Below are positions 34,006 through 62,779 of a DNA stretch of 64,000 nt, in pieces. Source of the stretch: Candidatus Woesearchaeota archaeon (GTDB lineage Archaea; Nanobdellota; Nanobdellia; SCGC-AAA011-G17; GW2011-AR18); assembly GCA_018302545.1 (NCBI GenBank), contig JAGVZM010000002.1, positions 2,198 through 66,197 on the forward strand, given 5' to 3'. Numbering within the stretch: the first letter of the stretch is position 1; every line of letters starts with the position of its first letter. The position numbers were made by a program, and so were the translations under genes. The notes beneath the pieces are model-generated. The model was not told the DNA's origin. It ran no database searches and saw only the letters and a list, made by a program, of their open reading frames with translations.

Positions 34006-34036
34006 AATAATAAAAAGAAGAGGATTACTTATAAAT

Positions 34037-35571: not shown

Positions 35572-35572
35572 T

Positions 35573-39154: not shown

Positions 39155-39612
39155 TTTTTATCCTTCTTTAACCATAATTCATGTTCTGTTAAGTAAAGTT
39201 TTATATGTCTTCTGCTTCTGAAAAATCCCCCTCTAGATTTAACTCTCAAGTGCCTATAAGTTTCTCTAGAGATTTTTTGATCAGTAACCAATGAAGAAAC
39301 TAAGTCTCTCTGAGCTCTAATAGAATTCATCCAATTTTGTTTTCTAGACAATCTTGCAGTTTCTTTTCCTTTCTTATTACCTGGACCATTTCTTCTACCC
39401 TTACGTTTTTGGATTATTCTCTTTCTTATTCTAGATCTTGATATTCCTCTTTTAGGTTTAACTAAAATTACTCCATTAGAGATTAAACCTCTTAAATCTT
39501 CTTTAGTCACAGCTTCTTTAATTTCATTAGACTTCTCAGGATTAAACCAAACTCTACCCAAACCAATATCTAGTAACCTAGCAACCATTTCTTTTTTACT
39601 TCTTAGGTTCAT
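39151..39612 (-). CDS. rpl19e: 50S ribosomal protein L19e
   Basis: LLDIGLGRVWFNPEK...RKGRRNGPGNKKG; operon position. Confidence 0.9.
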   Translation of the reverse strand: MNLRSKKEMVARLLDIGLGRVWFNPEKSNEIKEAVTKEDLRGLISNGVILVKPKRGISRSRIRKRIIQKRKGRRNGPGNKKGKETARLSRKQNWMNSIRAQRDLVSSLVTDQKISRETYRHLRVKSRGGFFRSRRHIKLYLTEHELWLKKDKK

Positions 39613-40270
39613 TCTTCTTCACTCCTTTCTTCTTTGGCTTAGATTCTTTAGTTGATTCCGTATTTTCTGCATAAGGATCTATCCTATGATCATCTTTATC
39701 TAATCCTTTAGAATTGCTAGTATCTTCTTTCGAATCTTTATGATGTGAATGATCATGATCTTTATGTTCATGAGATTCTTCTTTCTTTTTTTCTTTTGCT
39801 TCACTTAATTTTTTCTTTTTCTGCTCTTTTCTAGATGCAGAACCTTGTTTTTTAGAAATCAAAATATCTTTAACACTAACAACATAAGCTTCTATATCTT
39901 TAACACCCAAGACTTTAAGGCCTAAAGATTTAGCCTTATCTAAAATTAATAATCTCTTTTTAATGCCTACTCCAGAAGAGATAATCACACAACAATTTTC
40001 TACTACTTTACTGAGATCATTAATATTAGAAACAAGAATAGGCATTAATCCATGTTTGGTTAAACCTTTAACTAAATTAGGACCCGCATAACCTATTGAA
40101 GGAATATTCCTATGCCCTCTAAAACCTCTTCTTAATTTACTTTGAATACCTTTAGGTTTTCTCCACTTTCCTCTAAATTGTTTAATCTTATTAGCTTCTT
40201 GTCTCTCAAAAGGAGGAGTTTTATCTTTAATTTTCTTTCTCAAATCCAATAAAGGTTTTATTTTATTCAT
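39596..40270 (-). CDS. rpl32e: 50S ribosomal protein L32e with about 80-aa K/E/H-rich C-terminal tail
   Basis: FERQEANKIKQFRGKWRKPKGIQSKLRRGFRGH; tail ...SHEHKDHDHSHHKDSKED... Confidence 0.9.
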   Translation of the reverse strand: MNKIKPLLDLRKKIKDKTPPFERQEANKIKQFRGKWRKPKGIQSKLRRGFRGHRNIPSIGYAGPNLVKGLTKHGLMPILVSNINDLSKVVENCCVIISSGVGIKKRLLILDKAKSLGLKVLGVKDIEAYVVSVKDILISKKQGSASRKEQKKKKLSEAKEKKKEESHEHKDHDHSHHKDSKEDTSNSKGLDKDDHRIDPYAENTESTKESKPKKKGVKKNEPKK

Positions 40271-40818
40271 TCTTCATCTCCTGGTTTTAAAATAATAAAA
40301 CAACCATCTTGGAATATTCTTCTATCCCTATTTGTAATTCTAGTGTTTTGCTCTATCTTAGCAGCAGTCTGACCTACCTTCTCTTTATCTAATCCATCGA
40401 CTAAAATAAGGTCACCTTGAACCTTTACAGATACCCCATCAACAAAGCTTGTCTTTCTAGGAACTTTTTCACCTAAAAAATTCTTAATAACAAGAGAATT
40501 ACCTTCAACAGTAACAGTCATAGGGAAATATCCTGAACATATCTTCAACTTAGCTTTATATCCTTCTTGAACTCCTATAAACATATTTCTTACATGTGCT
40601 TTATAAGTATTCATAAACATTTTATCAGAATTAGAAAATCTAACACCATTCTTATTCTTAAAAATAACTACCCCATTTTCAACAACCATAACAATTCTTG
40701 GGTTCAAAAAAGTTCTTTCTAAACTACCTTTAGTTCCCTTAACAAAGATAGTATTATTCTCTACTTTAACTTCCACTCCTTGTGGAATACTAAGTTGAGC
40801 AACGTAAATTTTCTTCAT
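40267..40818 (-). CDS. rpl6: 50S ribosomal protein L6 (uL6)
   Basis: 183 aa, two-domain uL6 pattern; operon position between S8 and L32e. Confidence 0.9.
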   Translation of the reverse strand: MKKIYVAQLSIPQGVEVKVENNTIFVKGTKGSLERTFLNPRIVMVVENGVVIFKNKNGVRFSNSDKMFMNTYKAHVRNMFIGVQEGYKAKLKICSGYFPMTVTVEGNSLVIKNFLGEKVPRKTSFVDGVSVKVQGDLILVDGLDKEKVGQTAAKIEQNTRITNRDRRIFQDGCFIILKPGDEE

Positions 40819-40819
40819 T

Positions 40820-41212
40820 TTAATAACAATAAGCTATAAGCTTGCCTCCAATGCCTTTATCTAAAGCCTCTTTATGAGTCATAATTCCTTTTGAAGTAGT
40901 CACAATAAATAAACCAAAATTTTTAGAAGGTAAATATCTTTTTTCAAAAGTTTCATAATTATCCTTTGTAAAAGAAAATCTAGGTTTGACAACTCCACAT
41001 TTATTTATATTACCTATTAAATTAATTTTTATCCATCCCCCTCTAGACTCATCAACAACAGAAAAGTCACCAATATAATTACTATCCTTAAGTAATGTTA
41101 ACACTGAAACCAAAATTTTAGATTTAGGTCCAACTAAACATTCATTCTTACCCTGTTTCTCACTGTTTAAAATATGACTTAAACAATTTGCTAATGGATC
41201 ATTCAAACTCAT
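40820..41212 (-). CDS. rps8: 30S ribosomal protein S8 (uS8)
   Basis: NDPLANCLSHILNSEKQGK; operon position. Confidence 0.9.
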   Translation of the reverse strand: MSLNDPLANCLSHILNSEKQGKNECLVGPKSKILVSVLTLLKDSNYIGDFSVVDESRGGWIKINLIGNINKCGVVKPRFSFTKDNYETFEKRYLPSKNFGLFIVTTSKGIMTHKEALDKGIGGKLIAYCY

Positions 41213-41220
41213 TTTTCCTC

Positions 41221-41451
41221 CTAGCTAAATTTCTTAAAACCAATTTTCTTAGCATCCTCCCTAAAACACATTCTACACATCTGAATTCCATAACATCTTA
41301 TATGAGCACCAAATCTACCACATCTTCTACACCTTCTCAAACCAATTCCAGTAGTCCTAATTTTAGGTGAATTATGCTTCAAAAATTTCTTCTTTTTAGA
41401 TTTTTTCGCATCTAGTTGTTTAAAAACCTTAGTAAATTCTTTAATAGTCAT
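41221..41451 (-). CDS. rps14: 30S ribosomal protein S14 (uS14, zinc-ribbon type) with N-terminal extension
   Basis: [25 protein letters not shown]; 76 aa. Confidence 0.85.
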
Positions 41452-41963
41452 TATTCATCCTCCAACACCAAACTAAATTCTTTTTTCATGAAATCCATAG
41501 CTTGAACATCACTAATATTGTGCCTGCTAGGAATCTTTCTTTTTAATTTGGATCTTCTCTTAATTCTAAATCCTTTTCTGCTTAAAGTAACAGCCGCTTC
41601 TAAACCTATAACTCCTATACTCGCTTCATAAGGAACTTCAGGAATATCTATATACTCTTTAATACCAAATGAAAAATTACCAAACTTATCAAACTTTCTC
41701 ATAGAAATACTATTATCCATTGCACTCAACAATCTTTTCAGGAGTTTAGAAGCTTCCTTTCCTCTAACCGTAACTTTACATGCAATAGGTAATTTAGGTC
41801 TAACCCCCCAAGTAGGAATTCTCTTATCACTACTTGTTTGAACAGGTTTCCTTCCAGAGATATTTTTAAGTAATCTCATAGCCTTATCTAATTTATCTCC
41901 AGGACTACCAACCCCAATGTTAAGGGTAACTTTTTCAACATGTATTTCTCTCATTAGATTCAT
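41451..41963 (-). CDS. rpl5: 50S ribosomal protein L5 (uL5)
   Basis: [22 protein letters not shown]...; operon position. Confidence 0.9.
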
Positions 41964-42676
41964 GATTTAGCCTCCAAGCCAACTTCAACTTTTCCATTAC
42001 CAACAACAAAAACATAATTCCTCAAAGTAATATAATCTTTATCACCAATCTCAAGAACAAGTTTAGCAGCCTTCATATCTTTAGAAGGAACTAATTCTTT
42101 GACCTTTGCAATAACCCCAACATAACTGCCATCTACCAAATAAACAAAAGATCCTTTGTCTAGAGAAAATAATTTATTTATCTTCTTATTTTTTAGATCA
42201 TATAATACACTATCTCCGATTTTTGCATCAGATTTATCCAATAAAATATTTCTGCCATCATGGAAAGTTATCTGTAATTTCCCATTTTTAACAATAGACT
42301 TTTTAATAACTTTCAAGAGTTTAGTATTTTGTTCATCTTTATCTAAAGGAATTAAAACAAAATTTCCTTTTTTATTAAACACTATTTTATAAGACTCTTT
42401 CAATTTAGGAAGTTCTATAATATCCATTATACCTATTGGAAACTTATAATCTTTTCTAACAACACCATCAATTAAAAGACCACCAGAATTAATTATATTT
42501 TTAACTTCTTTAGCAGTCTTTGCATAATTTAATAAATTTTTAAGTAAAAAATTCACAGTCAAGCATCTTGACAGAGGGTGCGGTCCCGCTAAAGGTCTTG
42601 TTATATATTTGTTTTCCTTTCTAGCTAATTTCCAATTTTTTGGCGATGCCAACCTAGATAAATGATTTTGTCCCAT
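41960..42676 (-). CDS. rps4e: 30S ribosomal protein S4e
   Basis: GQNHLSRLASPKNWKLARKENKYITRPLAGPH. Confidence 0.9.
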   Translation of the reverse strand: MGQNHLSRLASPKNWKLARKENKYITRPLAGPHPLSRCLTVNFLLKNLLNYAKTAKEVKNIINSGGLLIDGVVRKDYKFPIGIMDIIELPKLKESYKIVFNKKGNFVLIPLDKDEQNTKLLKVIKKSIVKNGKLQITFHDGRNILLDKSDAKIGDSVLYDLKNKKINKLFSLDKGSFVYLVDGSYVGVIAKVKELVPSKDMKAAKLVLEIGDKDYITLRNYVFVVGNGKVEVGLEAKS

Positions 42677-42677
42677 T

Positions 42678-43055
42678 TTATTTCCTCTCTAATATTTTCT
42701 TTCTATATTTATCCTCCATATTTAACTCAGTTATAAGTAAATTAGAAGGATCTATAGGTCTGGTTAACTTAGTTCCATCTCTTTTAACATTAACAACCCC
42801 CTCAACATAAACAGAGTGGTTTACTAAACTAACCCTAGTAACTTTAGCAACTCTCCCTTTAAACTCTCCAACAATAACTTTAACAAGATCTCCCTTTCTA
42901 ACAGGAAGATTTCTCTTTCCATATTTTTGTTTTAAATCTTTACTTAACCTAACACTCATAAATTTTCTAATTATGTGTAAAGGAGCATTATATCTATACT
43001 TCCTTTGTTTTCTAGGATTTTTACTCCCAACCCATTTTCTACTCCACAATTTCAT
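42678..43055 (-). CDS. rpl24: 50S ribosomal protein L24 (uL24)
   Basis: KOW VRKGDLVKVIVGEFKGRVAKV; ORF opens at 43067 but MKLWSRKW at 43055 avoids overlap with L14. Confidence 0.88.
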   Translation of the reverse strand: MKLWSRKWVGSKNPRKQRKYRYNAPLHIIRKFMSVRLSKDLKQKYGKRNLPVRKGDLVKVIVGEFKGRVAKVTRVSLVNHSVYVEGVVNVKRDGTKLTRPIDPSNLLITELNMEDKYRKKILERK

Positions 43056-43056
43056 T

Positions 43057-43458
43057 TTACACCACAAGTTTAGCTATTTTAGTAACAGCAGGCCACCTTT
43101 GTGATACCTCCTTAGCAATTGGACCTTTAATTAATGTTCCTTTTGGATTTCCTTTATCATCCTTTAAAACGACTGCAGCATTATCTTCAAATTTAACCCT
43201 AGTACCATCAGATCTTCTATATTCTTTTTTTTGTCTAACTATAATTGCACTAACAACCTTCTTTCTCATTTCAGGATTCCCTTTTCTAACAGACGCAACA
43301 ATATGATCGCCAACGCCCCCACTTAAGTTTCTTCCCTTAACAGTTTTAGCTCTTTTAAAAGACATAACAAATAAAATCTTAGCTCCTGAATTATCACACG
43401 CGAGTACATAAGATCCTTTTTGTATTCCTTTTGTTATATTTGCTTTTAATGCTTTCAT
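43057..43458 (-). CDS. rpl14: 50S ribosomal protein L14 (uL14)
   Basis: GGVGDHIVASVRKGNPEMRKKV. Confidence 0.9.
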   Translation of the reverse strand: MKALKANITKGIQKGSYVLACDNSGAKILFVMSFKRAKTVKGRNLSGGVGDHIVASVRKGNPEMRKKVVSAIIVRQKKEYRRSDGTRVKFEDNAAVVLKDDKGNPKGTLIKGPIAKEVSQRWPAVTKIAKLVV

Positions 43459-43772
43459 TATAATTTCTCCACAATTACAAAGTTTTTAGTTTTACTTATA
43501 GGCCTAGTCTCAACTATCCTTACTTTATCTCCTACTTGTGCATTTATGCATATAGGATTATGAACTTGTATCTTACTTCTCCTTTTTTCATATCTTTGAT
43601 ATTTGGGCAAGTAAACAATTCTACTCCACTGTACTACTGCAGATTTTTGAGCACCAGATTTAACAACTTGAGCAATAAACTCTCTACCTCTAAGTTTCAA
43701 ACCAGTCTCCTCTACTACCATCTGCACAGAGCCCTTTTCAACTTCCATTATTTTTTGTTTTTTCTTAACCAT
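43458..43772 (-). CDS. rps17: 30S ribosomal protein S17 (uS17)
   Basis: VRIVETRPISKTKNFVIVEK. Confidence 0.9.
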   Translation of the reverse strand: MVKKKQKIMEVEKGSVQMVVEETGLKLRGREFIAQVVKSGAQKSAVVQWSRIVYLPKYQRYEKRRSKIQVHNPICINAQVGDKVRIVETRPISKTKNFVIVEKL

Positions 43773-44091
43773 TTTTACCTTGACTTTCTTTGATTATTAT
43801 TGAATCAGCGTTGAATCCTAATTTCTGCAACTCTGCTTTGACCTTTTCAACATGATTACCTTGTAACTCTATAACACCATTCTTAGATGTTCCGCCACAA
43901 GCAAGTTTAGTCTTAAGTTTTTTACTAAGATCCTTAAGATCAATAGTCTTTTCATCAAAGCCTTCCACTACAGTTGCTAATTTACCATATCTTTTTTTAA
44001 CAACTTTAATAGTTATCTTTTGACCTTCCCTGGCAATAGTTTGACAAACACAAAGGTCTTTAGGTAAACTACAAACACTGCATATTTCCAT
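43765..44091 (-). CDS. sui1: translation initiation factor SUI1 (aIF1)
   Basis: 108 aa; N-terminal CSVCSLPKDLCVC, core LKTKLACGGTSKNGVIELQGNHVEKVKAELQKLGF. Confidence 0.85.
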   Translation of the reverse strand: MEICSVCSLPKDLCVCQTIAREGQKITIKVVKKRYGKLATVVEGFDEKTIDLKDLSKKLKTKLACGGTSKNGVIELQGNHVEKVKAELQKLGFNADSIIIKESQGKNG

Positions 44092-44316
44092 TTATTTTGT
44101 CGTTACCTCCTTCTTATTTTTCATATTCAAAATTGTCTTCATTCTAGCAATATTTTTTCTAATTACTTTAACTTTTCCTGGATTCTCAGGAGGAGTACCT
44201 CTTGAGATTTGAGATCTATATTTAATTAGTTCCATATTTAGTTCTTGCATATTTTTTCTAATTTCTTCTTCTCCCATATTTTTTAATTCATTCTTCTTTA
44301 GTTTCGCCATTTTCAA
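44092..44316 (-). CDS. rpl29: 50S ribosomal protein L29 (uL29)
   Basis: 74 aa helical; LKNMGEEEIRKNMQELNMELIKYRSQ; operon position. Confidence 0.88.
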   Translation of the reverse strand: MKMAKLKKNELKNMGEEEIRKNMQELNMELIKYRSQISRGTPPENPGKVKVIRKNIARMKTILNMKNKKEVTTK

Positions 44317-45121
44317 CTTCCTGTTTTACTTCTTTTGTTTTTTTCTTTGTTCTCTTTTTAGGTTTTTCCCCAGTTTCAACTTCAGTAGTCTTAATTTCCT
44401 CTTTGACATCAACTGATTTTTCTTCAACAACTGGTTTAGGTTGATCTAAAACCTCAGAAGATTTTTTAGCTTGTACAATTATATCTTGTTCACTAACTGG
44501 AGTGCTAACAACTTTAATTTGATCTTCTCTAATTTTTATATCATCAGGCAAAACAACCTCTGAATGCAATATACTAACCTTTATTCCAATAGTACCACTT
44601 CTTAAGTTACAAGACTCATAAGACCTATCCATATAATTTTCTGAAACATCACCTGATTTTTTCAAATAGCCTGCTGAAAATCTCCAAGTTTTAGCTCTTT
44701 CACCAGGAACTCCCCTTCCAGATATAACAATTTCTATTCCTTTTGCTCCTGCCCTCATAGCATCCTCTAAGGCTTTGTAAGCCATAGCCTTAAATCTCTT
44801 AGGACCAAACCTATCAAATCCAGTAATCAAAGATCTAGATACAGATGAAGCATCAACTAAAGGATTAGGAATTTCTAAAACTTCTAGCTGAGGATTTTCC
44901 ATATTAAACTTAGTTTTCAAAATATCTGTTAATTTCTTAATGTTAGCTCCTTTTCTACCAACTATTAAACCAGGTCTAGAGGTATAAACACTAATCTTCT
45001 CTCCTAAAGGAGTTCTCTGCATAGCAATATAACTACAGCTAGTTGCACCTAAGAAACTAAATACAAAATCTTGTATTTGTTTTTCCTTCACTTTTTCAGC
45101 AATAATCTGTCTTTCAATCAT
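44288..45121 (-). CDS. rps3: 30S ribosomal protein S3 (uS3) with K/E-rich C-terminal tail
   Basis: KH domain GLIVGRKGANIKKLTDIL; about 60-aa charged tail. Confidence 0.9.
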   Translation of the reverse strand: MIERQIIAEKVKEKQIQDFVFSFLGATSCSYIAMQRTPLGEKISVYTSRPGLIVGRKGANIKKLTDILKTKFNMENPQLEVLEIPNPLVDASSVSRSLITGFDRFGPKRFKAMAYKALEDAMRAGAKGIEIVISGRGVPGERAKTWRFSAGYLKKSGDVSENYMDRSYESCNLRSGTIGIKVSILHSEVVLPDDIKIREDQIKVVSTPVSEQDIIVQAKKSSEVLDQPKPVVEEKSVDVKEEIKTTEVETGEKPKKRTKKKTKEVKQEVENGETKEE

Positions 45122-45558
45122 TTTTTACCTTCCTTTTTATCTTCCACATTTCTCTCTTCAACAATCAATTCAACATGAGTATTTTTCATTTTAGTTCTAC
45201 CCTTCCTAGTAGAATGCCATCTAGCCTCAGCCTTATCAGCTTTAGCATGAACTAAATATAAACTATTAACATTCAATCCCTTATTTTCAGCATTAGCCTC
45301 TAATGAATTAAACAAATTCAAAAATTCAGTACCTGCTTTAACTGGATATTTACCAGGACCAACACCTTTCCTATGGCCTCTATTCCAACTATATCTCCTA
45401 ACAGGAACAGCCCTCTCCTGATCAACAGTATATTGAATCATTTGTTTAGCTTGTTTTAGAGATTTACCTCTAATATAATTACAAATCTCAACAGACATTT
45501 TAGTAGAGATATTTAAAGATCTTCCACTAACCTTTGCAGTATTATTCTTATCAACCAT
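45118..45558 (-). CDS. rpl22: 50S ribosomal protein L22 (uL22)
   Basis: 146 aa; ...VPVRRYSWNRGHRKGVGPGKYP...; operon position. Confidence 0.9.
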   Translation of the reverse strand: MVDKNNTAKVSGRSLNISTKMSVEICNYIRGKSLKQAKQMIQYTVDQERAVPVRRYSWNRGHRKGVGPGKYPVKAGTEFLNLFNSLEANAENKGLNVNSLYLVHAKADKAEARWHSTRKGRTKMKNTHVELIVEERNVEDKKEGKK

Positions 45559-45559
45559 T

Positions 45560-45958
45560 TTACTTCACACTAACTGATGAACTTGATTTAGTTGCACCAA
45601 TACCTGGAGCATTATGTCCAACTTTCTTTCTTGTTAAGGCAAATTCACCTAAATACATACCTAACATATCAATTGTGATTTCAATAGGAACAAACTCCTT
45701 TCCATTATAAATATGAATAGTAGTTCCTAAAAATTCAGGAAGTATAATCATGTTTCTACAGTGAGTTCTTACAGGTTTCTTTAATTTTCCTTCTTTACCT
45801 TTCTTGACTTTTAACAAAAGTCTTTTTTGAGCATCAGTCAATCCTCTTTTCAAAGTTCTTCTAGCTCTTGCAGGAACGTATTTCGCAAAATCAACTAAAC
45901 TCATATTCGCCAGTTCCTCTACAGTCTTTCCTTTAAAATTTACTTCTTTCCTTGCCAT
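45560..45958 (-). CDS. rps19: 30S ribosomal protein S19 (uS19)
   Basis: GKEFVPIEITIDMLGMYLGEFALTRK. Confidence 0.9.
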   Translation of the reverse strand: MARKEVNFKGKTVEELANMSLVDFAKYVPARARRTLKRGLTDAQKRLLLKVKKGKEGKLKKPVRTHCRNMIILPEFLGTTIHIYNGKEFVPIEITIDMLGMYLGEFALTRKKVGHNAPGIGATKSSSSVSVK

Positions 45959-45960
45959 AT

Positions 45961-46674
45961 TTACTTCTTCCTACCTGTTCTTCTCGGTGCTACTTTTCCT
46001 ACCTTTCTTCCTGGTGGAGCATGTCTAGGCGCAATACTTGATTTACCTTTATGCCTACCTCTTCCTGAACCAAAAGGATGTTCAACTGCATTCATCGCTA
46101 CAGCAGAAGTAACAGGATATAATTTACCTCTAGCTCTCATAGCATGCCATTTTTTTCCAGCTTTGACAAATGGTTTTTCAAGTCTACCACCGCCAGCTAC
46201 TTGTCCAACAGTTGCCCTACACTTAGCATTAAATTCTTTTTCTTTTTTACTAGGCATTAATAATTTAACCTTACCCTCTGTTCTCGCCAAAATTTTTGCA
46301 AAAACTCCAGAAGATCTAACAAACTTACCACCGTCTCCTGGTTTAGATTCTATATTATAAACAAAAGTTCCTTCTGGGATCTCAGATAATGAAAGTGTAT
46401 TCCCATTATTGATACTAGACTTATTTCCTGTAAACACTTGATCACCAACAGCCAATCCTTCTGGAGCAATCATATAACAAATTTCTCCATCTTCATATTG
46501 AACAACTGCTAAAGGAGCACTATGACTAACACTATGCATTAACTCAACAATTACTCCAAAACAACCTTCACTATTAAAAGATTTATTCTTAGCTCTAGCA
46601 AAATATCTATGACTAAGTGCTACATATCTCCTAGTTCCTCTTCCTCTCTTCTGTGAAGTTATTCTTTTTCCCAT
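45961..46674 (-). CDS. rpl2: 50S ribosomal protein L2 (uL2)
   Basis: HPFGSGRGRHKGKSSIAPRHAPPGRKVG. Confidence 0.92.
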   Translation of the reverse strand: MGKRITSQKRGRGTRRYVALSHRYFARAKNKSFNSEGCFGVIVELMHSVSHSAPLAVVQYEDGEICYMIAPEGLAVGDQVFTGNKSSINNGNTLSLSEIPEGTFVYNIESKPGDGGKFVRSSGVFAKILARTEGKVKLLMPSKKEKEFNAKCRATVGQVAGGGRLEKPFVKAGKKWHAMRARGKLYPVTSAVAMNAVEHPFGSGRGRHKGKSSIAPRHAPPGRKVGKVAPRRTGRKK

Positions 46675-46935
46675 TTACATTAACCCCAATTTAGTCATTA
46701 TATCAATTGCTGGATTAGCCTCATTTAATTTGACATATGCTCTTTTTTTTCCATCAACATTCAAAAAAGTATTTACTTTATCAACTTTAACATCAAATAA
46801 TTTTTCAACAGCCTGTTTAATCTCTTCTTTTTTAGACTTCAAATCTACAACAAATAATAATTTATTTTCCCTATCCATAAGTCTAATCGCTTTTTCTGTA
46901 GCCAGAGGATATTTTATAACTTGATCTTTTTTCAT
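46675..46935 (-). CDS. rpl23: 50S ribosomal protein L23 (uL23)
   Basis: IKYPLATEKAIRLMDRENKLLFVVD. Confidence 0.9.
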   Translation of the reverse strand: MKKDQVIKYPLATEKAIRLMDRENKLLFVVDLKSKKEEIKQAVEKLFDVKVDKVNTFLNVDGKKRAYVKLNEANPAIDIMTKLGLM

Positions 46936-47702
46936 TTCTTCACTCCAATAAACAACTTCTCTTTATCCATAGTTTCCAAAGCATTTTTAGTAAATATGCA
47001 GGCTCTAGGTAAGTTGTAATTCAAAGACAATAAATGCGCATTCAAACTCTTAACGTCAATAGTATCATAACCAGGAAGATTATTCAGAGCTTTAACAACA
47101 TCACAATTCTTTGTAACGACAACTAAAGGATTCTTCTTATATCTAACAGCCCTTCCTCTAGATTTACCCCTTCCAGCTTTAAAAATTTTTTTTCCATCAA
47201 CATCAAAACCTAAAGTCTCCAAAACTTTCTTAACATCTTTAGTAACTTTAATACTTTCAAACTTAGAATCAATAATAGTCAATTTATTTTGTTGCTGAAT
47301 ACCACTTAAAGCACTTCTAATAGCCTTTCTTCTTTCCTTAACATTAATCTTTAATTCCCAATTTTTACTAGCTTTAGGAGGATGCGCCCTTCTACCTCCA
47401 ACAGTACTTGATATTAAAGCACCAACCCATCCAAACTGCATACCTCTTCTCCACATTGTTTTTCTTGGAACTCTAGATATTCCCTTACCATAAGAACCTT
47501 TATAATTCCTTCTTCTTCTAGATAATTTAGCAGAATAATTCTTTCCAGCCCTAGGCATAGTTCCATAAGGCTGTCTTAAATGACTAAATATAGCTAATTT
47601 AGCTCTATTGACCAAACCAGGCTCATATTCTTCAGTAAATTGAATAGGCAATTCTATACTACTTAGTTTTTTCCCATCCAATCCTAAAACATCAACTTTC
47701 AT
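46932..47702 (-). CDS. rpl4: 50S ribosomal protein L4 (uL4)
   Basis: RQPYGTMPRAGKNYSAKLSRRRRNYKGSYGKGISRVPRK. Confidence 0.9.
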   Translation of the reverse strand: MKVDVLGLDGKKLSSIELPIQFTEEYEPGLVNRAKLAIFSHLRQPYGTMPRAGKNYSAKLSRRRRNYKGSYGKGISRVPRKTMWRRGMQFGWVGALISSTVGGRRAHPPKASKNWELKINVKERRKAIRSALSGIQQQNKLTIIDSKFESIKVTKDVKKVLETLGFDVDGKKIFKAGRGKSRGRAVRYKKNPLVVVTKNCDVVKALNNLPGYDTIDVKSLNAHLLSLNYNLPRACIFTKNALETMDKEKLFIGVKK

Positions 47703-48703
47703 TGCTTACTCTCCTTACTAATATAATCTACATTTATTCCAGCGCCAAATCCCTTTGTTTGCCTTATAGGACTAGTAAAAGTAATTAATCTTTTAACATG
47801 ACCTGGCAAGCTTCCTTTTATTAATAAATAATCATTCTTAACTAAACCATAATGTAAAAATCCACCTTTAGGATTAACTTTTTCAGGATCAGAACTAACA
47901 AATAAAATATCTTTATTATATTCTGTTCTCAAATGTATACCCATTCCACCAGGCATTTTAACTCCCCACCAAACACGTCCAGGACTCTCAGGACCAAGAA
48001 TATTACCTCTTCTTTTCTTCTCTGTTTTATGGTTTCTTAAATTAATTCCAAATCTCTTAACTGTACCTTGAAATCCTTTACCTATAGTAACAGCATGAGC
48101 ATCAACTTTAATACCTTCTTTTAAAATATCACTAACTTTAATCTCTCTATCAAACAATGTTTTAGCATAATCAAGTTTATCTTTTACATTATTTCCACCC
48201 ACACCTAATTCAAGAACTTCAGGCTTTTTCTTGCCAATTCCTGTTTTTTTAGGCTGTGTGTATATTTTAACTCTTAAATCATAAAACTCTCCAATTTTAG
48301 ACTCTAACTCCTTTATTTTAGAGTCATAATCCTGCTTTTTTGGAAGTTTAATCTTCTTAGCAAGCTCTTTGTCTAATTTTGGATTCATAATTTCAGAAAC
48401 TAAAACTAAATGATTAAATGAATTTTTTTTATAAAATTTTAAAGAAAGAACCTTAATAGAAGGACATTCAACAACAGTAACAGGCCAAATAAGACTCTCA
48501 TTTTTTGTCATTGAATTTGATCTTGTATCCTTAACATTAACATGGGTCATACCAACTTTATAACCAACAAATCCTTGTAAACCAACATCTTTACTTTTAA
48601 CCCAAGATCTAACTCTAGCAACCATTTTCTTAGCCCTCTTTCTAGGCCAAAATTGCTTACTTCCATGTTTAGGATTATTTCTCCTATTTTTTGTGTGTCC
48701 CAT
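47699..48703 (-). CDS. rpl3: 50S ribosomal protein L3 (uL3)
   Basis: GSKQFWPRKRAKKMVARVRSW...; first gene of the cluster. Confidence 0.92.
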   Translation of the reverse strand: MGHTKNRRNNPKHGSKQFWPRKRAKKMVARVRSWVKSKDVGLQGFVGYKVGMTHVNVKDTRSNSMTKNESLIWPVTVVECPSIKVLSLKFYKKNSFNHLVLVSEIMNPKLDKELAKKIKLPKKQDYDSKIKELESKIGEFYDLRVKIYTQPKKTGIGKKKPEVLELGVGGNNVKDKLDYAKTLFDREIKVSDILKEGIKVDAHAVTIGKGFQGTVKRFGINLRNHKTEKKRRGNILGPESPGRVWWGVKMPGGMGIHLRTEYNKDILFVSSDPEKVNPKGGFLHYGLVKNDYLLIKGSLPGHVKRLITFTSPIRQTKGFGAGINVDYISKESKQ

Positions 48704-50289: not shown

Positions 50290-53241
50290 TTATTTACTCT
50301 TTTTTAAATCTTTTCTATTCCTAACATTAAAAATAGAGTAGTAAACAATCAATAAAACTAAAGCAAAAACTAAAGCCCCTATGCCCCAACCAGGAATATT
50401 GTTGGATTCAAAACCAGTAGCACAAACCCCTACAACTCTAAGCGGACTACTCAAACCCATTGCTGTAGCTTCTGCTTGAGTTATTTGATTGGTATTACAA
50501 ACATCAAAACCTAAAGCTGCAAAATTCTGACCACAAGTAACCTCAACATCATCCAACTCTCCATCATTATCTAAATCAATACAACTCTTAAGATTAACAA
50601 AGGACGTCCCAGGAATACCTCTTGTACAAGATTGGCAACAATTAGGTTCATTTATATTACCAGATAAAGAAAGATTACCATTACAAGCTTCACCAACACC
50701 GCATAAATATCCTCTAACACTACCGCAACTAACTGATCCTCCACCAGGACCTCTACCTATTATACTTCCACAATCGTTTCTACAAACACCATCACCACAA
50801 CAAGTCATTCCTCCAAGACAGTCATTATTATTAAGACACTGCCCTCCTATATTAGTAATTCCAGTATACAAAAGACAACTAGGACAAAAACTAGAATTAA
50901 ATCCTCCTAAAGCATTTTCTAGATCAGAAACAGGACCATAATGAATCCAACCTAAGTAAAGATAAGTAGCATTCATAGGAGCAACATAATTAAAATTTAT
51001 TATACCATTCAAAACAGGTATAGCTGTTAGAGTATCTAAAACTACAAGAGAATTAGTATCATTAAATCCAACAACAAAGCTAGTTGCATATCCTGAGAAT
51101 ATTGAAGAACCTCCTCCAAAAGTTGGATCTTCTCTTACACAACTACACTGCAAACTAACTGTTTGACCAACAACAGCTGTAACCATCATTCCTCTATTAG
51201 TTATTGCAGTTCCATTGTTCCAGACACATTCAGTTTGACAAGTATTAGAACAAATAGGATCAGGAAGAACTCTACAAATACCAGAATTCGCACCTTGTTG
51301 AAGAGCGCTACTTCCACTATTAAGATCACAATAAAATCCAGTGCCTAAGGAAGAACAATCATTATTACTACTACAAGTAACAACCTCACATAAACTAGTT
51401 GAAGGATTACAAACCTCAGTTAACCCACAGTCATTATTGGTATTACAAATTGAACAAGTTCCAGTTTGACAAATCAGACATTGCCCAACTAAAGGATTGC
51501 TAGTTCTTAAACATCTTGCATCAGGATAATTCTGACAAGTTCTACCAATCCTACAACCAGAAACACACTGACATCCATCACAAACTTCCCCAATACTACA
51601 ATCACTATCAAAAACACAACTAGCATTAACAATATGAAGTAATTGATCATTTCTATTTCCAGAATCACAAATTAAATTATTATTTGTAGAATTTAGAAAA
51701 TTAAAAGCATATCTTCCCTCATCTAAAAAAGCAGAAGATAAGAAACCAGTACTACCAAAACGAATTGGTGAATAATTACCATATGAAAAAGAGTTATTAT
51801 CTAAATCTCTTAAAGTAAAATTCAAAGATCCACTATTCAAAACATTTCCTTGTGAATCTAACAAACAAGAAAGATAACCTATAGCAGAGTCTCCCTCTTC
51901 AATCGTTAAATTATATCCATTACCGCTATGTAAAATACGGCCGTCAGTCCAATTACAAGAAGGATTACAATTTAAACCTAAATTAGGATCTCTAACTTGT
52001 AAAACCCCTCTAAAGTTATCTACAGAATTACAATTAGGATTAGGAGCACCACCAACTGTAAATATATAAACCCCAGGAGTAGAAGGAACAAAAGATCTAA
52101 TAGCATTACCATTAGTAACACCAATATTAGTATCCACTAAAACAGGGGCAGTTAAACTATTAAAGATATTATAAATCACCAAATTTGTATTTGTGCTATC
52201 TAACAAAGCACCAGAAGAATCTTGTAAACATGAAGCATTTATCATAACATTATCTCCTGTGTTTACACTAACAACATTAGGACCTGAAAGATAATTCCCT
52301 CCTTCCCACTGACAACCAAGATTACATGATACACTAGAAGCTGCCCTAAGAAGACAACTAACTTTATTTCCATCATTATTACAAGAGTAATTAGGATCAC
52401 AAAAATATTGTCCTAATTGATAAACATTTTTACAAGAAGCAAAATCACCAGAACAACTCCATCCATCAGAGACATAACCACAAAGACCTTGATGAGTACC
52501 ACCACCAATTTGAGGACTAACACAAATATTAGTAGAAATATCACAAGTTTCTCCAAGATTACAATCAGAGTTACTCAAACATCCAGGTCTACAAAGACCA
52601 CTAGAAAAATCACAAAAATTACCACTAGGACAAGTAAAACTTTGAGAAGAACAAGTAAAAGTACAAATACCAGGGCTAGCAACTCTTAAATCACAAGTTT
52701 CTCCAAGATTACAATTATTGTTGCTCAAACATCCAGGTCTACAAATTCCAGAAATAGTATCACAATAATTTCCCGAAGTACAAGGAGCATTTTGTCCACA
52801 ATTGTTAGGTGATTGAATTCCACAAATTCTAGTATTAGGATCACAATAATTAGAGCTACACTCTATGTTATTATTACATGAAAGTCCATCAGTTTTTTTA
52901 GGATCACACGAAACACCACTTCCTATATTACTGCAATAATAATTAGTATTACAAAAATATTCTGATGCAGTTAGACCCGAAACTTGTTTACAAGAAGTAA
53001 AATCCCCTGAACAATACCATCCATTTATAGTATCCCCACAATATCCAATATAATTAGTTATAGTAGTTCCACCACTTTGTTGTCCAATAACACAAGTATT
53101 AGTAGTAAAGTCACAAGTCTCACCAGTATCACAAAATTGATTTATTTGTCCACAAGGAGCTCCAGGTATAGCAAAAACAAGTTCAATAGAAAATAAACTA
53201 ATTAAAACAGCAATAAGTAAAAATAATCCCCTCTTTAACAT
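50290..53241 (-). CDS. giant cysteine-rich secreted surface protein with C-terminal TM anchor
   Basis: ORF opens at 53304; signal peptide MLKRGLFLLIAVLISLFSIELVFA starts at 53241; dozens of Cys in recurring C..G(E/N)(T/Y)CD.....C modules (e.g. GLCRPGCLSNSDCNLGETCD twice); DLDNDGELDD; C-terminal TM GIGALVFALVLLIVYYSIF plus basic tail. Confidence 0.75.
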   Translation of the reverse strand: MLKRGLFLLIAVLISLFSIELVFAIPGAPCGQINQFCDTGETCDFTTNTCVIGQQSGGTTITNYIGYCGDTINGWYCSGDFTSCKQVSGLTASEYFCNTNYYCSNIGSGVSCDPKKTDGLSCNNNIECSSNYCDPNTRICGIQSPNNCGQNAPCTSGNYCDTISGICRPGCLSNNNCNLGETCDLRVASPGICTFTCSSQSFTCPSGNFCDFSSGLCRPGCLSNSDCNLGETCDISTNICVSPQIGGGTHQGLCGYVSDGWSCSGDFASCKNVYQLGQYFCDPNYSCNNDGNKVSCLLRAASSVSCNLGCQWEGGNYLSGPNVVSVNTGDNVMINASCLQDSSGALLDSTNTNLVIYNIFNSLTAPVLVDTNIGVTNGNAIRSFVPSTPGVYIFTVGGAPNPNCNSVDNFRGVLQVRDPNLGLNCNPSCNWTDGRILHSGNGYNLTIEEGDSAIGYLSCLLDSQGNVLNSGSLNFTLRDLDNNSFSYGNYSPIRFGSTGFLSSAFLDEGRYAFNFLNSTNNNLICDSGNRNDQLLHIVNASCVFDSDCSIGEVCDGCQCVSGCRIGRTCQNYPDARCLRTSNPLVGQCLICQTGTCSICNTNNDCGLTEVCNPSTSLCEVVTCSSNNDCSSLGTGFYCDLNSGSSALQQGANSGICRVLPDPICSNTCQTECVWNNGTAITNRGMMVTAVVGQTVSLQCSCVREDPTFGGGSSIFSGYATSFVVGFNDTNSLVVLDTLTAIPVLNGIINFNYVAPMNATYLYLGWIHYGPVSDLENALGGFNSSFCPSCLLYTGITNIGGQCLNNNDCLGGMTCCGDGVCRNDCGSIIGRGPGGGSVSCGSVRGYLCGVGEACNGNLSLSGNINEPNCCQSCTRGIPGTSFVNLKSCIDLDNDGELDDVEVTCGQNFAALGFDVCNTNQITQAEATAMGLSSPLRVVGVCATGFESNNIPGWGIGALVFALVLLIVYYSIFNVRNRKDLKKSK
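52541..52744. repeat. intragenic tandem duplication (two ~54-nt near-identical units 150 nt apart)
   Basis: 52541-52594 tcacaagtttctccaagattacaatcagagttactcaaacatccaggtctacaa versus 52691-52744 tcacaagtttctccaagattacaattattgttgctcaaacatccaggtctacaa; encodes the repeated CRPGCLSN(S/N)(D/N)CNLGETCD module. Confidence 0.8.
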
Positions 53242-53281
53242 ATAAAATAGAACATCAAAATAGCTATTTAAAATTATTCTT

Positions 53282-53689
53282 TTAATCAGACCAGATAGAA
53301 ACAAACATTAAGATAGTAACTAAAGGAAATAAATTTGTTATAAATGCATATTGTGGGAAAAACCAAACACCCACCATTATTTCAACAACAGCAATAATTG
53401 CAAAAATTTTGCTCATGTGATGTCCCCTTCTAGCAAATACCCAAAATAAAACAAAAGCACCTATCGCACCAGCAAGATCAAATAAACCATTATCAAAACT
53501 TAATAGATCTATAGCATCAACAGCAATTGCAAAAGGTAGTTTCCACAAATCCAAAGCAATATCTAAAAAGTGTTTTAAAGAAAACAAAACAGCAAAAGCC
53601 AGAACAATACCAAAAATAACCCAACCATAATCAAAAGGTTTACTAACAGAATTAACAACAAAACCTGTTAAATCATCTAAACCGAACAT
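53282..53689 (-). CDS. hypothetical integral membrane protein
   Basis: 135 aa, 4 TM; immediately upstream of and co-directional with the giant surface protein gene. Confidence 0.5.
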   Translation of the reverse strand: MFGLDDLTGFVVNSVSKPFDYGWVIFGIVLAFAVLFSLKHFLDIALDLWKLPFAIAVDAIDLLSFDNGLFDLAGAIGAFVLFWVFARRGHHMSKIFAIIAVVEIMVGVWFFPQYAFITNLFPLVTILMFVSIWSD

Positions 53690-55061: not shown

Positions 55062-55108
55062 GTATTTAAAGTTTCATAAAATTTTGAAATCATAGTCCCG
55101 TCGTCTAG

Positions 55109-55131
55109 ATTAGTTTAAAAACTAAAGACAA
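55109..55131 (+). other. tRNA-Gln intron 1 (23 nt, D-loop after A14-G15), canonical hBHBh' motif
   Basis: Outer helix GTC/GGC (55100-02/55133-35), central helix GTCT/AGAC (55103-06/55126-29), bulges AGA (55107-09) and AAC (55130-32), inner helix TTAGTT/AACTAA with a TAAA loop. Confidence 0.75.
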
Positions 55132-55154
55132 CGGCCCAGGATCGAGGACTCTGG

Positions 55155-55167
55155 ATCAATAGGAGAA
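55155..55167 (+). other. tRNA-Gln intron 2 (13 nt, position 37/38)
   Basis: Anticodon stem as outer helix, central helix CTCT/GGAG (one G-U), bulges GGA and AAA; no real inner helix (relaxed hBH). Confidence 0.7.
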
Positions 55168-55403
55168 ATCCTTGGACGGCAGTTCGAATCTGCCCGGGAC
55201 TATTTTTCCAATAAATTTAAATAACTTTAGTCTTAATCTATTTTCATGAAAACATCAAAGCTAATACAAAATAAGTATTTTTTCTTAGCCATGCTTATGA
55301 TGTTCTAATAGCCTAAAATATTTAGGAGGCCATTGCAATGATAAAAAACAACAAACAGATAGAAGAAGGAACTTTTAAATATCTAGAACTATCAAAGAAA
55401 AAA

Positions 55404-57527
55404 ATGAAGAAAAAGTTTTATATCACAACACCAATTTACTATGTAAATGATAAACCTCATGTTGGTCATGCATATACTACAATAATAGCAGATATTCTAG
55501 CAAGGTGGCATAGATTAAAACAAGAAGATGTATTTTTCCTAACTGGATTAGATGAAAACGGACAAAAAACAGTCGAAGCTTCTATAAAGTTCGGATTTAA
55601 AAGTCCACAAGCATGGTGTGATTATATAGCAGAAGAATATCTAAAAACATGGAAAAATCTAAACATAAGCAATGATGATTTTATAAGAACAACAGAAGAA
55701 AGACACCATAAACTTTCTATAGAGTTCACAAAAAAAGTTCAAAAAAAAGGAGACATCTATAAAGGAAACTATATAGGATTATATTGTGAAGGTTGTGAAG
55801 CATACATAACAGAATCAGAATTAACAAAAGAAGGTTTTTGTCCAAATCACAATAAAAAACCAAAGGAGTTACATGAAGAAAATTACTTTTTCAAATTAAG
55901 TAAATATGATAAACAATTACTAGAACATATAGAGAATAATCCAAGTTTCATACAACCCGAGTTCAGGAAAAAAGAAATTATTAATTTCATAAAGCAAGGA
56001 TTAAAAGATATAAGTATCTCTAGGCAGAGTTTAACATGGGGAATTCCTTTTCCTGGAGATGAATCTCAAAGAATTTATGTTTGGTTTGATGCATTATTAA
56101 ATTATTTGCACCCAAAGGAATATTGGCCTGCAAATATACAAATGATGGGTAAAGAAATAATAAAATTTCATTGTATAATCTGGCCGGCAATGCTTCTCTC
56201 AGCCGGATATAAACTTCCAAAAAAAGTATTTGCTCATGGATGGTTAACAATAAATGGAGAAAAGATGTCTAAATCTTTAGGCAATGCTATAGACCCAAAT
56301 CACCTTACTAAAACATTTGGAACAGATGCATTAAGATACTATTATGCAAGAGAAGTACCTTTAGGAAATGATGGAGATTTTTCAGAAAAACAATTAGTAG
56401 CTAGATTAAACAATGAGCTAGCAAATGAACTAGGCAACTTAATTTCAAGAACCTTAACTTTAATAGAAAAAAAATTAAATTCAGAAATAAAAAAAGATAA
56501 GGTAGATAAAACATTATTCAAAGATTTAAAGGTTAAACAAATCGACAAGTTCATCCAAGATATAGAACCCCATAATGCAATTGCATTAATTTTTCATTTT
56601 ATACATTCATGTAATCAATATATTAGCGAAAAAGAGCCATGGAACATCAATAAAGAAAATGAATTAAATAAAATACTCTATAATTTAACAGATGCTATTA
56701 GAATAATATCAATATTGCTCTATTCATTTCTACCAGAAACATGTGAAAAGATTCATAAACAATTATCTTTAGACACTAAAAAATTAAGTTTAGCTCAGGC
56801 TATTCCTGGAATATTAACAACAACAAAAATAAACAAAGGAGAAATTTTATTCCAAAAAGTAATTTTCAAAGAAACAAAAGATGTTTTCAAAAATCCTAAA
56901 TGTTATGTAACTCCAGAAGTGCAAAGATTAGGAATTAAAGTTAAATTTGCAGAATTAATCAACCTAAATATAAAAAAGAAACATATGGGTTTAGAAAAAT
57001 TAAAATCTGAAATAAAGAAAAGTTTCAAACCGAACATAAGAGTACTAAAAGGATATGATAATTACTCTAGATTATTAAACATAGAAGAAGGACAATGCTC
57101 AGTCTACAATTTAATGGATTTAGTTGAAGAAAACGGAAAACTTCCAACAATAAATACAGCTGTAGATAGTTATAATATTATATCTCTTGCTAAAAGCCTT
57201 GTTGTAGGTGCTCATGATAGAGAACATGTAAAGGGACCAGTGAGGTTTGATATTTTTAAAGGAAATGAATTATACATCCCATTATTCACAAATGAAAAAA
57301 AATCAGTTAATAAAGGAGAATTTGGTTGTATTGATGATGAAAAAGTTCTTTGTAGACTAGATATTAAACAAGGCGATCAAACAAAGGTGACAGAAAAAAC
57401 AAAGAATATTATTCTTTATGTACAAGGAAATGAATATACTTCAGAAGAATATTTGCAGGAAGCAATAGAAGAAATTTGTAAGTTAATGATTAGATTTTGT
57501 GATGGAGAATATAAAATATTAAATTAA
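55404..57527 (+). CDS. metG: methionyl-tRNA synthetase fused to a C-terminal B3/4 (COG3382-like) domain
   Basis: FYITTPIYYVNDKPHVGHAY (HIGH), Zn knuckle CEGCEAY...CPNH, KMSKSLGN; C-terminal about 200 aa LPTINTAVDSYNIISLAKSLVVGAHD...GEFGCIDDEKVLCRLDIKQGDQTKVTEKTKN match the B3/4 pattern; ORF opens at 55338 but MKKKFYITTP (55404) fits the family. Confidence 0.9.
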   Translation: MKKKFYITTPIYYVNDKPHVGHAYTTIIADILARWHRLKQEDVFFLTGLDENGQKTVEASIKFGFKSPQAWCDYIAEEYLKTWKNLNISNDDFIRTTEERHHKLSIEFTKKVQKKGDIYKGNYIGLYCEGCEAYITESELTKEGFCPNHNKKPKELHEENYFFKLSKYDKQLLEHIENNPSFIQPEFRKKEIINFIKQGLKDISISRQSLTWGIPFPGDESQRIYVWFDALLNYLHPKEYWPANIQMMGKEIIKFHCIIWPAMLLSAGYKLPKKVFAHGWLTINGEKMSKSLGNAIDPNHLTKTFGTDALRYYYAREVPLGNDGDFSEKQLVARLNNELANELGNLISRTLTLIEKKLNSEIKKDKVDKTLFKDLKVKQIDKFIQDIEPHNAIALIFHFIHSCNQYISEKEPWNINKENELNKILYNLTDAIRIISILLYSFLPETCEKIHKQLSLDTKKLSLAQAIPGILTTTKINKGEILFQKVIFKETKDVFKNPKCYVTPEVQRLGIKVKFAELINLNIKKKHMGLEKLKSEIKKSFKPNIRVLKGYDNYSRLLNIEEGQCSVYNLMDLVEENGKLPTINTAVDSYNIISLAKSLVVGAHDREHVKGPVRFDIFKGNELYIPLFTNEKKSVNKGEFGCIDDEKVLCRLDIKQGDQTKVTEKTKNIILYVQGNEYTSEEYLQEAIEEICKLMIRFCDGEYKILN

Positions 57528-61456: not shown

Positions 61457-61530
61457 TGGGCCCGATGTGATTTGAACACACGACCCCTACCTTATCAGAG
61501 TAGTGCTCCACCAAGCTGAGCTACGGGCCC
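61457..61530 (-). tRNA. tRNA-Ile(GAU), intronless
   Basis: Minus strand GGGCCCG TA GCTC AGCTTGGTG GAGC A CTACT CTGATAA GGTAG GGGTC GTGTG TTCAAAT CACAT CGGGCCC A; 74 nt; no encoded CCA. Confidence 0.9.
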
Positions 61531-62433: not shown

Positions 62434-62491
62434 GAAAAGTTGTGAAGAACATAAACGCCCTAGGCGGGACTCGAACCTGCGACCCCTTGAT

Positions 62492-62505
62492 CTCTGCTCA
62501 GTAAG
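62492..62505 (-). other. tRNA-Asn intron 3 (14 nt, position 37/38)
   Basis: Central helix CTGT/GCAG (one G-U), bulges TAC and AGA; cuts leave CTGTTA|A. Confidence 0.65.
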
Positions 62506-62512
62506 TAACAGT

Positions 62513-62534
62513 TTCACAGTCGTTATGTAGAACA
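62513..62534 (-). other. tRNA-Asn intron 2 (22 nt, anticodon stem 30/31)
   Basis: Bulges TGT and AAA flank CAC(T)/(T)GTG; inner helix GTT/GAC; removal turns CTTG...A into the 5-bp stem CTTGA/TCAAG. The 31/32 alternative would leave a U-U mismatch. Confidence 0.55.
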
Positions 62535-62549
62535 CAAGTGCTCTACCTG

Positions 62550-62565
62550 TTGCTCCCTAATAGGT
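62550..62565 (-). other. tRNA-Asn intron 1 (16 nt, D-loop after A14-G15)
   Basis: Central helix GCTC/GAGC, bulges AGA and AAC (identical to the tRNA-Gln D-loop intron), inner helix CCT/AGG; outer helix poor (relaxed BHB). Confidence 0.65.
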
Positions 62566-62779
62566 CTGAGCTACTAGGGCGTCTAAGAATTAGGCAACTA
62601 AAATTCTTTAAAAGCTTTTCTAAGATAAAAAATAGAATAAAAAAGAGTAAAATTATAAATTAGAGTGTAGCCCTGCTGATTACGCTTATTTTCATAAAAA
62701 GCCAAAGCTTCAATCAACAAGCTTAAGTACAGGGCCTTAAAAAAGAAACCTTTTTTTAATATAAAGTTTTCTAAAAAAT

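Follow-up and report, generated by a model that had tools for sequence, protein, structure and literature searches.

Organization of the locus

The sequence analysed, referred to below as the window, is the entire 64 kb stretch of DNA, with a GC content of about 29%. It contains four tRNA genes, namely those for tRNA-Phe, tRNA-Gln, tRNA-Ile and tRNA-Asn, and a cbf5 gene (Table 1). Eight BHB introns are distributed over these genes, seven of them in tRNAs and the eighth in the cbf5 mRNA. The original prediction had placed two of these introns in the D-loops of tRNA-Gln and tRNA-Asn and had counted six more in the window. All six were recovered, as Phe 51/52 and 59/60, Gln 37/38, Asn 30/31 and 37/38, and the insert in the cbf5 mRNA. 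It had also called the intron density very high, and this is borne out: seven introns in four tRNA genes, a small sample, compare with a mean of 0.21 introns per tRNA gene over 217 archaeal genomes and of 0.84 in the Thermoproteales (PMC8450103).

The host belongs to Candidatus Woesearchaeota (DPANN), as the MetRS encoded in the window matches a Candidatus Woesearchaeota protein at NCBI with 100% identity. After this identical protein the next relatives are 62–69% identical, and the nearest genomes are those of DPANN archaea. Three other assemblies contain the same organism at 99.98–100% identity. Independent assemblies of other samples reproduce without change the regions that were checked (the tRNA genes for Gln, Asn and Ile together with the intron of cbf5), and these regions are therefore not assembly artefacts.

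Only tRNA-Ile was recovered in the window by ARAGORN, whether run in default or in intron mode, and by Rfam, at gathering as well as at permissive thresholds. Inferences about genome completeness and codon usage for MAGs of this kind are affected, since standard tools recover only one of the four tRNA genes. The interrupted genes were rebuilt by hand and with a custom script that searches for BHB motifs and splice combinations together. This script is over-permissive, and solutions were picked by motif quality and by agreement across orthologues. Bare BHB geometry is frequent by chance, with dozens of matches per 130 nt, and was never used as the sole evidence. Other gaps of the window with weak ARAGORN calls or GC peaks were inspected and judged to contain no tRNA. 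One of them led to the cbf5 intron.

Table 1. Positions of genes, introns and neighbouring open reading frames in the window. B1 and B2, 5' and 3' bulges; H, central helix; h' and h, inner and outer helices; the arrow marks the predicted cut.
Feature	Position	Strand	Length	Remarks
tRNA-Phe(GAA) gene	9046–9169	+		T-arm introns 51/52 and 59/60; tRNA detectable only without both inserts
tRNA-Phe intron 51/52	9098–9129	+	32 nt	
tRNA-Phe intron 59/60	9138–9155	+	18 nt	
cbf5 gene (H/ACA pseudouridine synthase)	15558–16562	+		BHB-interrupted
cbf5 mRNA intron	15781–15801	+	21 nt	Strict BHB
Ribosomal-protein operon	33466–48703	-		Long; confirmed members include L4
ORF	50290–53304	-	1004 aa	Between ribosomal-protein operon and tRNA-Gln locus
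tRNA-Gln(CUG) gene	55094–55202	+	109 nt	Two introns; 73 nt when spliced; ARAGORN tRNA-Gln(ctg) only without both inserts
tRNA-Gln intron 15/16	55109–55131	+	23 nt	ATTAGTTTAAAAACTAAAGACAA; strict hBHBh'
tRNA-Gln intron 37/38 (canonical)	55155–55167	+	13 nt	B1 = GG↓A; H = CTCT/GGAG; B2 = AA↓A; h' = 1, h = 7 (hBH type)
MetRS gene	55338–57527	+		C-terminal B3/4 domain (PF03483)
tRNA-Ile(GAU) gene	61457–61530	-		Intron-free; sole tRNA found by standard tools in the window
tRNA-Asn(GUU) gene	62456–62580	-	125 nt	Three introns; 73 nt when spliced
tRNA-Asn intron 37/38 (canonical)	62492–62505	-	14 nt	B1 = TA↓C; H = CTGT/GCAG; B2 = AG↓A
tRNA-Asn intron 30/31	62513–62534	-	22 nt	H = CACT/TGTG (3/4 pairs); B2 = AA↓A
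tRNA-Asn intron 15/16	62565–62550	-	16 nt	ACCTATTAGGGAGCAA; relaxed HBh'

Structure of the two 15/16 introns

The acceptor stems and T-arms of the Gln and Asn genes are intact, and each gene is interrupted directly after A14-G15. In the Gln gene, nucleotides G10–T13 (GTCT) are located at 55103–55106 and are followed by A14 and G15 (55107–55108), while the exon resumes with C16 at 55132. Bulge B1 is AG↓A, the central helix H is GTCT/AGAC with all four pairs formed and bulge B2 is AA↓C. The inner helix h' comprises 6–7 bp (TTAGTT/AACTAA) and the outer helix h comprises 3 bp. In the Asn gene, which lies on the minus strand, G10–C13 (GCTC) is followed by A14 and G15 at 62567–62566, and C16 is found at 62549. 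Here B1 is again AG↓A, H is GCTC/GAGC (4/4 pairs) and B2 is AA↓C; h' is limited to 3 bp (CCT/AGG) and there is no outer helix (h = 0). The description given in the original prediction, with a common insertion site, AGA and AAC bulges, a decoy helix and differing hairpins, is accurate in every item.

The splice register places the cut between the second and the third base of each 3 nt bulge, which is confirmed by the structure of the ARMAN-2 enzyme–RNA complex (PMC12397907). After excision of all introns, ARAGORN returns a 73 nt tRNA-Gln(ctg) and a 73 nt tRNA-Asn(gtt). The unspliced genes give no call for Gln and a spurious tRNA-Ser for Asn. In the minimum-free-energy folds of both full precursors, nucleotides 10–13 are paired with the intronic decoy, AGA is bulged and the inner hairpin is stacked on the decoy. 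Both elements thus contain two 3 nt bulges on opposite strands, a 4 bp helix and a cut between bases 2 and 3, and their flanking helices correspond to the strict form for Gln and to the relaxed HBh' form for Asn. Removal of the other introns lengthens the outer helix of the canonical Asn 37/38 intron from 1 to 5 bp. A 16/17 register, shifted by one base (H = CTCA/TGAG), is possible in two of the related loci (L001 and L003) and impossible in the window, L002 and L208, which leaves 15/16 as the only register common to all Asn genes.

Both elements are most likely to be ordinary archaeal BHB introns between D-loop positions 15 and 16, with predicted cleavage and ligation, and we assign this reading, together with the adenine preference and the separate gain described below, a probability of about 0.8. 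Pairing of the intron's 3' portion with the 5' strand of the D-stem (nucleotides 10–13) would form the central 4 bp helix of the precursor. This helix would be flanked by the 3 nt bulges A14-G15↓A and A-A↓Y16, with the intronic hairpin closing the motif. EndA would cut after G15 and before Y16, and a ligase would join the exons. After ligation, the D-stem would pair again with its native 3' strand.

A large part of the resemblance between the two introns is imposed by these constraints. The 'decoy D-stem' arises because nucleotides 10–13 necessarily form half of the central helix in any BHB motif at 15/16. Of the six bulge nucleotides, three are the conserved tRNA bases A14, G15 and Y16, and only intron positions +1, -2 and -1 are free. 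The shared design put forward in the original prediction consequently survives as a description, since its features are present, and falls as an argument: the helix partner and A14, G15 and Y16 are forced and hence are not independent evidence. The likeness of the two introns is mostly splicing geometry and invariant tRNA bases, and the remainder is a lineage-wide preference for adenine at cut sites.

An origin of the introns through duplication of the 3' strand of the D-stem was also considered and rejected. In tRNA-Gln the decoy AGAC is not a copy of the native strand GGAT, which makes a local duplication unlikely. In tRNA-Asn the only string in common is GAGCA, which is forced.

Comparison with related genomes

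The Gln and Asn genes could be compared with their orthologues because the synteny of the ribosomal-protein operon with MetRS and the tRNA-Gln, tRNA-Ile and tRNA-Asn cluster is kept in relatives. The syntenic operon in L205, L208 and L209 contains L3, L23, L2, S19, L22, S3 and L29. The tRNA-Gln gene is located immediately upstream of MetRS in the window and likewise in five relatives.

The two 15/16 introns differ strongly in their distribution. The Asn intron is present in six of the six related genomes (window included) in which the gene could be reached, with a length of 15–29 nt and always with bulges AG↓A and AA↓C/T; the five relatives are L001, L002, L003, L205 and L208, and it recurs in at least 35 tRNA-Asn genes from metagenomes. 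The full set of introns at 15/16, 30/31 and 37/38 is common to the tRNA-Asn(GUU) genes of the window, L002, L205 and L208. The 30/31 intron is absent in L001, which has introns at 15/16 and 37/38, and in L003, where introns are found at 15/16, 37/38 and 53/54.

The tRNA-Gln(CUG) orthologues are far more variable, with seven different intron positions across six genomes. Next to the 15/16 and 37/38 introns of the window, an intron is found at 37/38 in L001, at 25/26 and 37/38 in L002 and L205, at 21/22 in L206/L207, and at 29/30 and 52/53 in L208. A 15/16 intron was not found in these five orthologues (L001, L002, L205, L206/L207 and L208), in which the D-loop is intact and the introns lie elsewhere. 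Orthologous tRNAs in relatives, a comparison to which the original prediction had pointed, therefore do separate the two cases, as Asn 15/16 is general and Gln 15/16 is confined, among six orthologues, to the lineage of the window.

The simplest reading of these patterns is that the Asn intron is old and vertically inherited, while the Gln intron would be a recent and separate gain. That the Gln intron was gained here, and not lost repeatedly elsewhere, is inferred by parsimony across the six orthologues and not from a tree. It would have been gained in a gene whose orthologues show fast intron turnover.

Relationship between the Gln and Asn introns

The original prediction had offered two explanations for the resemblance, of which the first was a spread of introns between tRNA genes. 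In this case, the Gln intron would derive by transposition from the Asn intron or from some other intron at 15/16, and its helix partner would afterwards have been adapted to the D-stem at the new location. Such a history would agree with the insertion site and free bulge bases common to both introns, and with the fact that the Gln intron is lineage-specific and that the Asn intron was already there. There is also a precedent in the Thermoproteales, where transposition of introns between different tRNAs has been inferred (Fujishima 2010, as summarised in PMC4090602 and PMC4033280).

The sequences of the introns, however, do not point in this direction. Their inner hairpins are unrelated and their lengths are 23 and 16 nt. 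The best local alignment score of the Gln hairpin with any of 69 further introns collected is 9, compared with a shuffled-null maximum of 8.1 ± 1.2 (p ~0.35), and the number of near-copies of the 23 nt Gln intron elsewhere in the window is six versus 5.25 expected from shuffled queries. All features that the two introns share are either forced or common to every intron of this genome. The intron families of the Thermoproteales resemble the present case in that one position is occupied in different tRNAs of an intron-rich lineage. According to the same two sources (PMC4090602, PMC4033280), those families are nevertheless defined by similarity between introns of different tRNAs, and this similarity was tested here and not found. 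With no shared sequence beyond the forced parts, transfer between the Asn and Gln genes is not supported and we regard it as unlikely. A separate gain of the Gln intron is thus preferred on the sequence comparison.

Adenine bias in the bulges

The second explanation in the original prediction was selection for a preferred bulge context. For an enlarged view of the free bases, metagenome contigs were scanned with a pattern that fixes the exon bases and the forced helix partner and leaves the three free bases open. The scan covers tRNAs with a GCTC D-stem and yielded at least 120 matches. Among the matches listed, an inner helix of at least 3 bp is present in 50 of 64 with low-GC flanks and in 7 of 60 with higher-GC flanks, and the low-GC class has hairpins of 3–10 bp. 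High-GC matches that form no hairpin were discarded, being chance hits to bacterial coding sequence or to tandem tRNA-like repeats. Five metagenomic loci (L137, L172, L178, L186 and L192) contain head-to-tail D-arm-like units, made up of GGGATAGCTCAGTGGGTAGAGC and a short spacer, with a GC fraction of about 0.45–0.5. These tandem arrays were rejected as introns, being chance matches to the search pattern.

The matches listed include 56 unique hairpin-bearing introns, of which at least 35 belong to tRNA-Asn(GTT), seven to tRNA-Lys, three to tRNA-Thr and one each to tRNA-Tyr and tRNA-Met. As the sample consists mostly of tRNA-Asn genes, probably with one shared ancestral intron, the p-values given below overstate independence.

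In the 60 unique low-GC matches listed, to which no hairpin filter was applied, the free bases are adenine in 92% (-2), 82% (-1) and 77% (+1) of cases. For comparison, the hairpin loops of the metagenomic 15/16 introns contain 42% A among the matches listed. The dinucleotide AA at -2,-1 is found in 48 of the 56 hairpin-bearing introns listed, where a fraction of about 0.18 is expected (binomial p = 5e-28, ignoring shared ancestry). The inner helices of the 60 low-GC matches listed behave as expected for BHB introns, with structure kept and sequence varying: pairs 1–5 are formed in 86–93% of cases versus 53–68% after shuffling, with four to six pair types per position.

A matched control is provided by the canonical 37/38 introns of the same Asn genes, again among the matches listed. 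AA at -2,-1 occurs in 89% of the 15/16 introns and in 62% of the 37/38 introns (Fisher p = 0.016), and A at +1 in 92% and 48%, respectively (Fisher p = 1.6e-4). The canonical introns of these genes thus show the same bias in a weaker form. Within the window, A is present at -2 in all eight introns, AA in six of the eight, and a purine lies 5' of the 5' cut in all eight. The AA↓C bulge is therefore a habit of the lineage that is tightest at 15/16, and it does not constitute a private link between the Gln and Asn introns.

In the complexes of the ARMAN-2 and A. fulgidus enzymes, the first bulged base is held in a π-cation sandwich and the third is stacked on the catalytic histidine (PMC12397907). 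The biased bulge positions coincide with these contact positions in EndA–RNA structures of other species, and in 15/16 introns it is the invariant A14 that occupies the clamped position of the 5' bulge. At the free bulge bases the lineage prefers adenine, and the preference is strongest where the 3' bulge opens, at its first base. By analogy, from the substrates and from structures of the enzymes of other species, we infer that a preference of the endonuclease may be the cause of this bias. The A-richness of the genome contributes as well.

Whether A-richness could account for the whole effect was weighed separately. The shared A and AA would then be a coincidence in an AT-rich genome, without any selection on the bulge bases. 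Given a window of about 29% GC and intron loops with 42% A (among the matches listed), three adenines have a probability of about 0.07 per intron of arising by chance. This explanation does not fit well with adenine frequencies of 77–92% at the free bases in 60 matches listed whose hairpins have diverged beyond alignment, nor with a bias significantly above that of the 37/38 introns of the same genes. It also leaves aside the adenine at -2 in eight of eight window introns and the match between the biased positions and those that are clamped and stacked in the crystal structures (PMC12397907). We consider coincidence to be very unlikely, and selection on bulge context, the second explanation of the original prediction, is supported.

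Finally, it is hardly credible that the inserts stay unspliced, with the genes being pseudogenes or the tRNAs keeping an enlarged D-loop: standard tRNA finders do reject both genes, but the 3-4-3 BHB geometry is exact and excision yields canonical 73 nt cloverleafs, the Asn intron has been kept, with hairpins that covary, in many lineages, the genes occupy conserved syntenic positions with TATA-like boxes upstream, and their sequences are identical in independent assemblies.

Splicing endonuclease

Two of the motifs in the window are relaxed, namely Asn 15/16, which is without an outer helix (HBh'), and Gln 37/38, which is without an inner helix (hBH). Experiments in other archaea indicate that a relaxed motif outside the canonical position depends on a broad-specificity endonuclease (PMC3241643, PMC3239211, PMC5829648), and by analogy it is reasonable to expect the same need in the present host. 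A phmmer search with M. jannaschii EndA as the query, validated against PDB entry 1A79, gave no match to an EndA homologue in the 64 kb of the genome that make up the window or in 208 fetched loci. The architectures described for DPANN EndA are α4, (αβ)2 and ε2, and α4 with an L3 loop has been linked to heavy tRNA disruption (PMC5829648). An α4-type EndA with an L3 loop may therefore be counted as a third DPANN option besides the heterotetramer, (αβ)2, and the three-unit enzyme, the two options named in the original prediction, which had expected a broad-specificity endonuclease.

The intron in cbf5

The cbf5 gene of the window is split by gene callers into pieces of 77 and 235 aa. Splicing is predicted to give a continuous Cbf5 of 327 aa with the catalytic motif GHGGTLDP, in which the intron divides the codon of the catalytic Asp as G↓AT. 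A crenarchaeal cbf5 intron has been reported at the same position (PMC2738675). Full-length, uninterrupted proteins (about 328 aa in most cases) account for 119 of the 120 closest Cbf5 homologues, with L205 and L208 among the genomes represented. The remaining homologue, which is truncated, is that of the organism itself (P0139), and the cbf5 intron is for this reason taken to be lineage-specific. The sequence comparison suggests either a parallel gain at the same site or transfer.

Discussion

D-loop BHB introns, tRNAs with multiple introns and intron-rich DPANN genomes are already described, and D-loop BHB introns are known to be cut in vitro by broad-specificity EndA (PMC3241643). The closest experimental parallel is A. 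pernix pre-tRNA-Thr2(UGU) (Hirata et al. 2011; PMC3241643), in which, as here, the BHB motif lies in the D-loop. Its intron is removed by the protein endonuclease alone, whereas the strict A. fulgidus enzyme hardly cuts it (PMC3241643). A. pernix is, however, a crenarchaeon with an (αβ)2 enzyme that contains a Crenarchaea-specific loop, and cleavage is experimental there and predicted here (PMC3241643). [quoted passage not shown] 2018; PMC5829648) also contains several introns, including a relaxed HBh' motif in the D-loop that is similar to Asn 15/16. In this case the intron is located at 20b/21, on the other side of the D-loop, and accompanies a canonical intron; M. kandleri is a euryarchaeon, and its enzyme, which is without the specificity loop, cuts the 20b/21 intron poorly (PMC5829648).

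Among the DPANN, ARMAN-2 (Candidatus Micrarchaeum; Fujishima et al. 2011; PMC3239211) has introns at 53/54 and 59/60 and an ε2 endonuclease. It resembles the present organism in having multiple non-canonical introns, two of them in one T-arm, to be compared with Phe 51/52 and 59/60 here and with Asn 53/54 in L003. It differs in that a D-loop intron at 15/16 is not described in the text consulted (PMC3239211). The ε2 enzyme has been reported for ARMAN-1, ARMAN-2 and Mancarchaeum only. Position 15/16 was not found in the reviews consulted, which name other positions; the notation defeats text searches, and priority cannot be claimed. The present analysis adds how widely the Asn 15/16 intron occurs and is conserved in Woesearchaeota-like lineages, the adenine signature at the positions in contact with the enzyme and the contrast with the fast turnover in tRNA-Gln.

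The locus bears on how archaeal BHB introns are gained. We tentatively put forward, as a possibility that we consider open to serious doubt, that 15/16 is a recurrent birth site for BHB introns in DPANN, that their endonuclease has a real specificity for bulge adenines, and that the organism is in a phase of active intron gain. The last element is based on the Gln 15/16 and cbf5 introns, which are both found only in this lineage. If this were true, A14-R15 and Y16 would already provide half of both bulges, including the adenine clamped by the enzyme, and a small insertion consisting of a hairpin, a complement to the D-stem and AA would become spliceable even without an outer helix. The locus would then be a natural system in which the mechanism of BHB-intron gain can be caught.

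More immediate uses concern gene annotation and enzymology. DPANN tRNA sets are incompletely predicted (PMC5829648), and the training sets for the intron models of tRNAscan-SE comprised Crenarchaeota/Euryarchaeota and Thaumarchaeota but no DPANN (PMC8450103). The Asn 15/16 intron, if it is as old as its wide conservation suggests, can be used as a marker and as training data. The tRNA-Gln orthologues form a compact data set on intron turnover, and the bulge-base bias leads to a direct prediction on substrate recognition by DPANN endonucleases.

Other features of the region

The MetRS encoded downstream of tRNA-Gln ends in a B3/4 domain, which is normally found in the β subunit of PheRS. Many other MetRS homologues listed have a C-terminal tRNA-binding domain (PF01588) instead. 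The combination of MetRS with B3/4 is common to many DPANN homologues, from Woesearchaeota, Diapherotrites, Undinarchaeota and Aenigmarchaeota. When reference genomes were scanned with the catalytic core, the next best matches after the closest Woesearchaeota-like genomes came from Acidobacteria, at about 43% identity.

No Pfam match was obtained for the ORF of 1004 aa located between the ribosomal-protein operon and tRNA-Gln; in the organism's ENA assembly the same gene is called with a length of 983 aa. In L205 (GCA_016179945.1), an apparently interrupted tRNA gene lies just upstream of tRNA-Gln, at about 8340–8470 on the minus strand, with a T-arm GGGTTCAAATCCCAG and a long AT-rich insert.

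Several relatives contain a large ORF with helix-turn-helix or weak LAGLIDADG matches (L003, 3900–5260; L032, 8900–10000; L205, 8766–10004; L208, 8075–9097), none of which has a counterpart in the window. This ORF adjoins tRNA-Gln or is located directly upstream of MetRS, and from its sequence it looks like a free-standing homing-endonuclease-like insertion.
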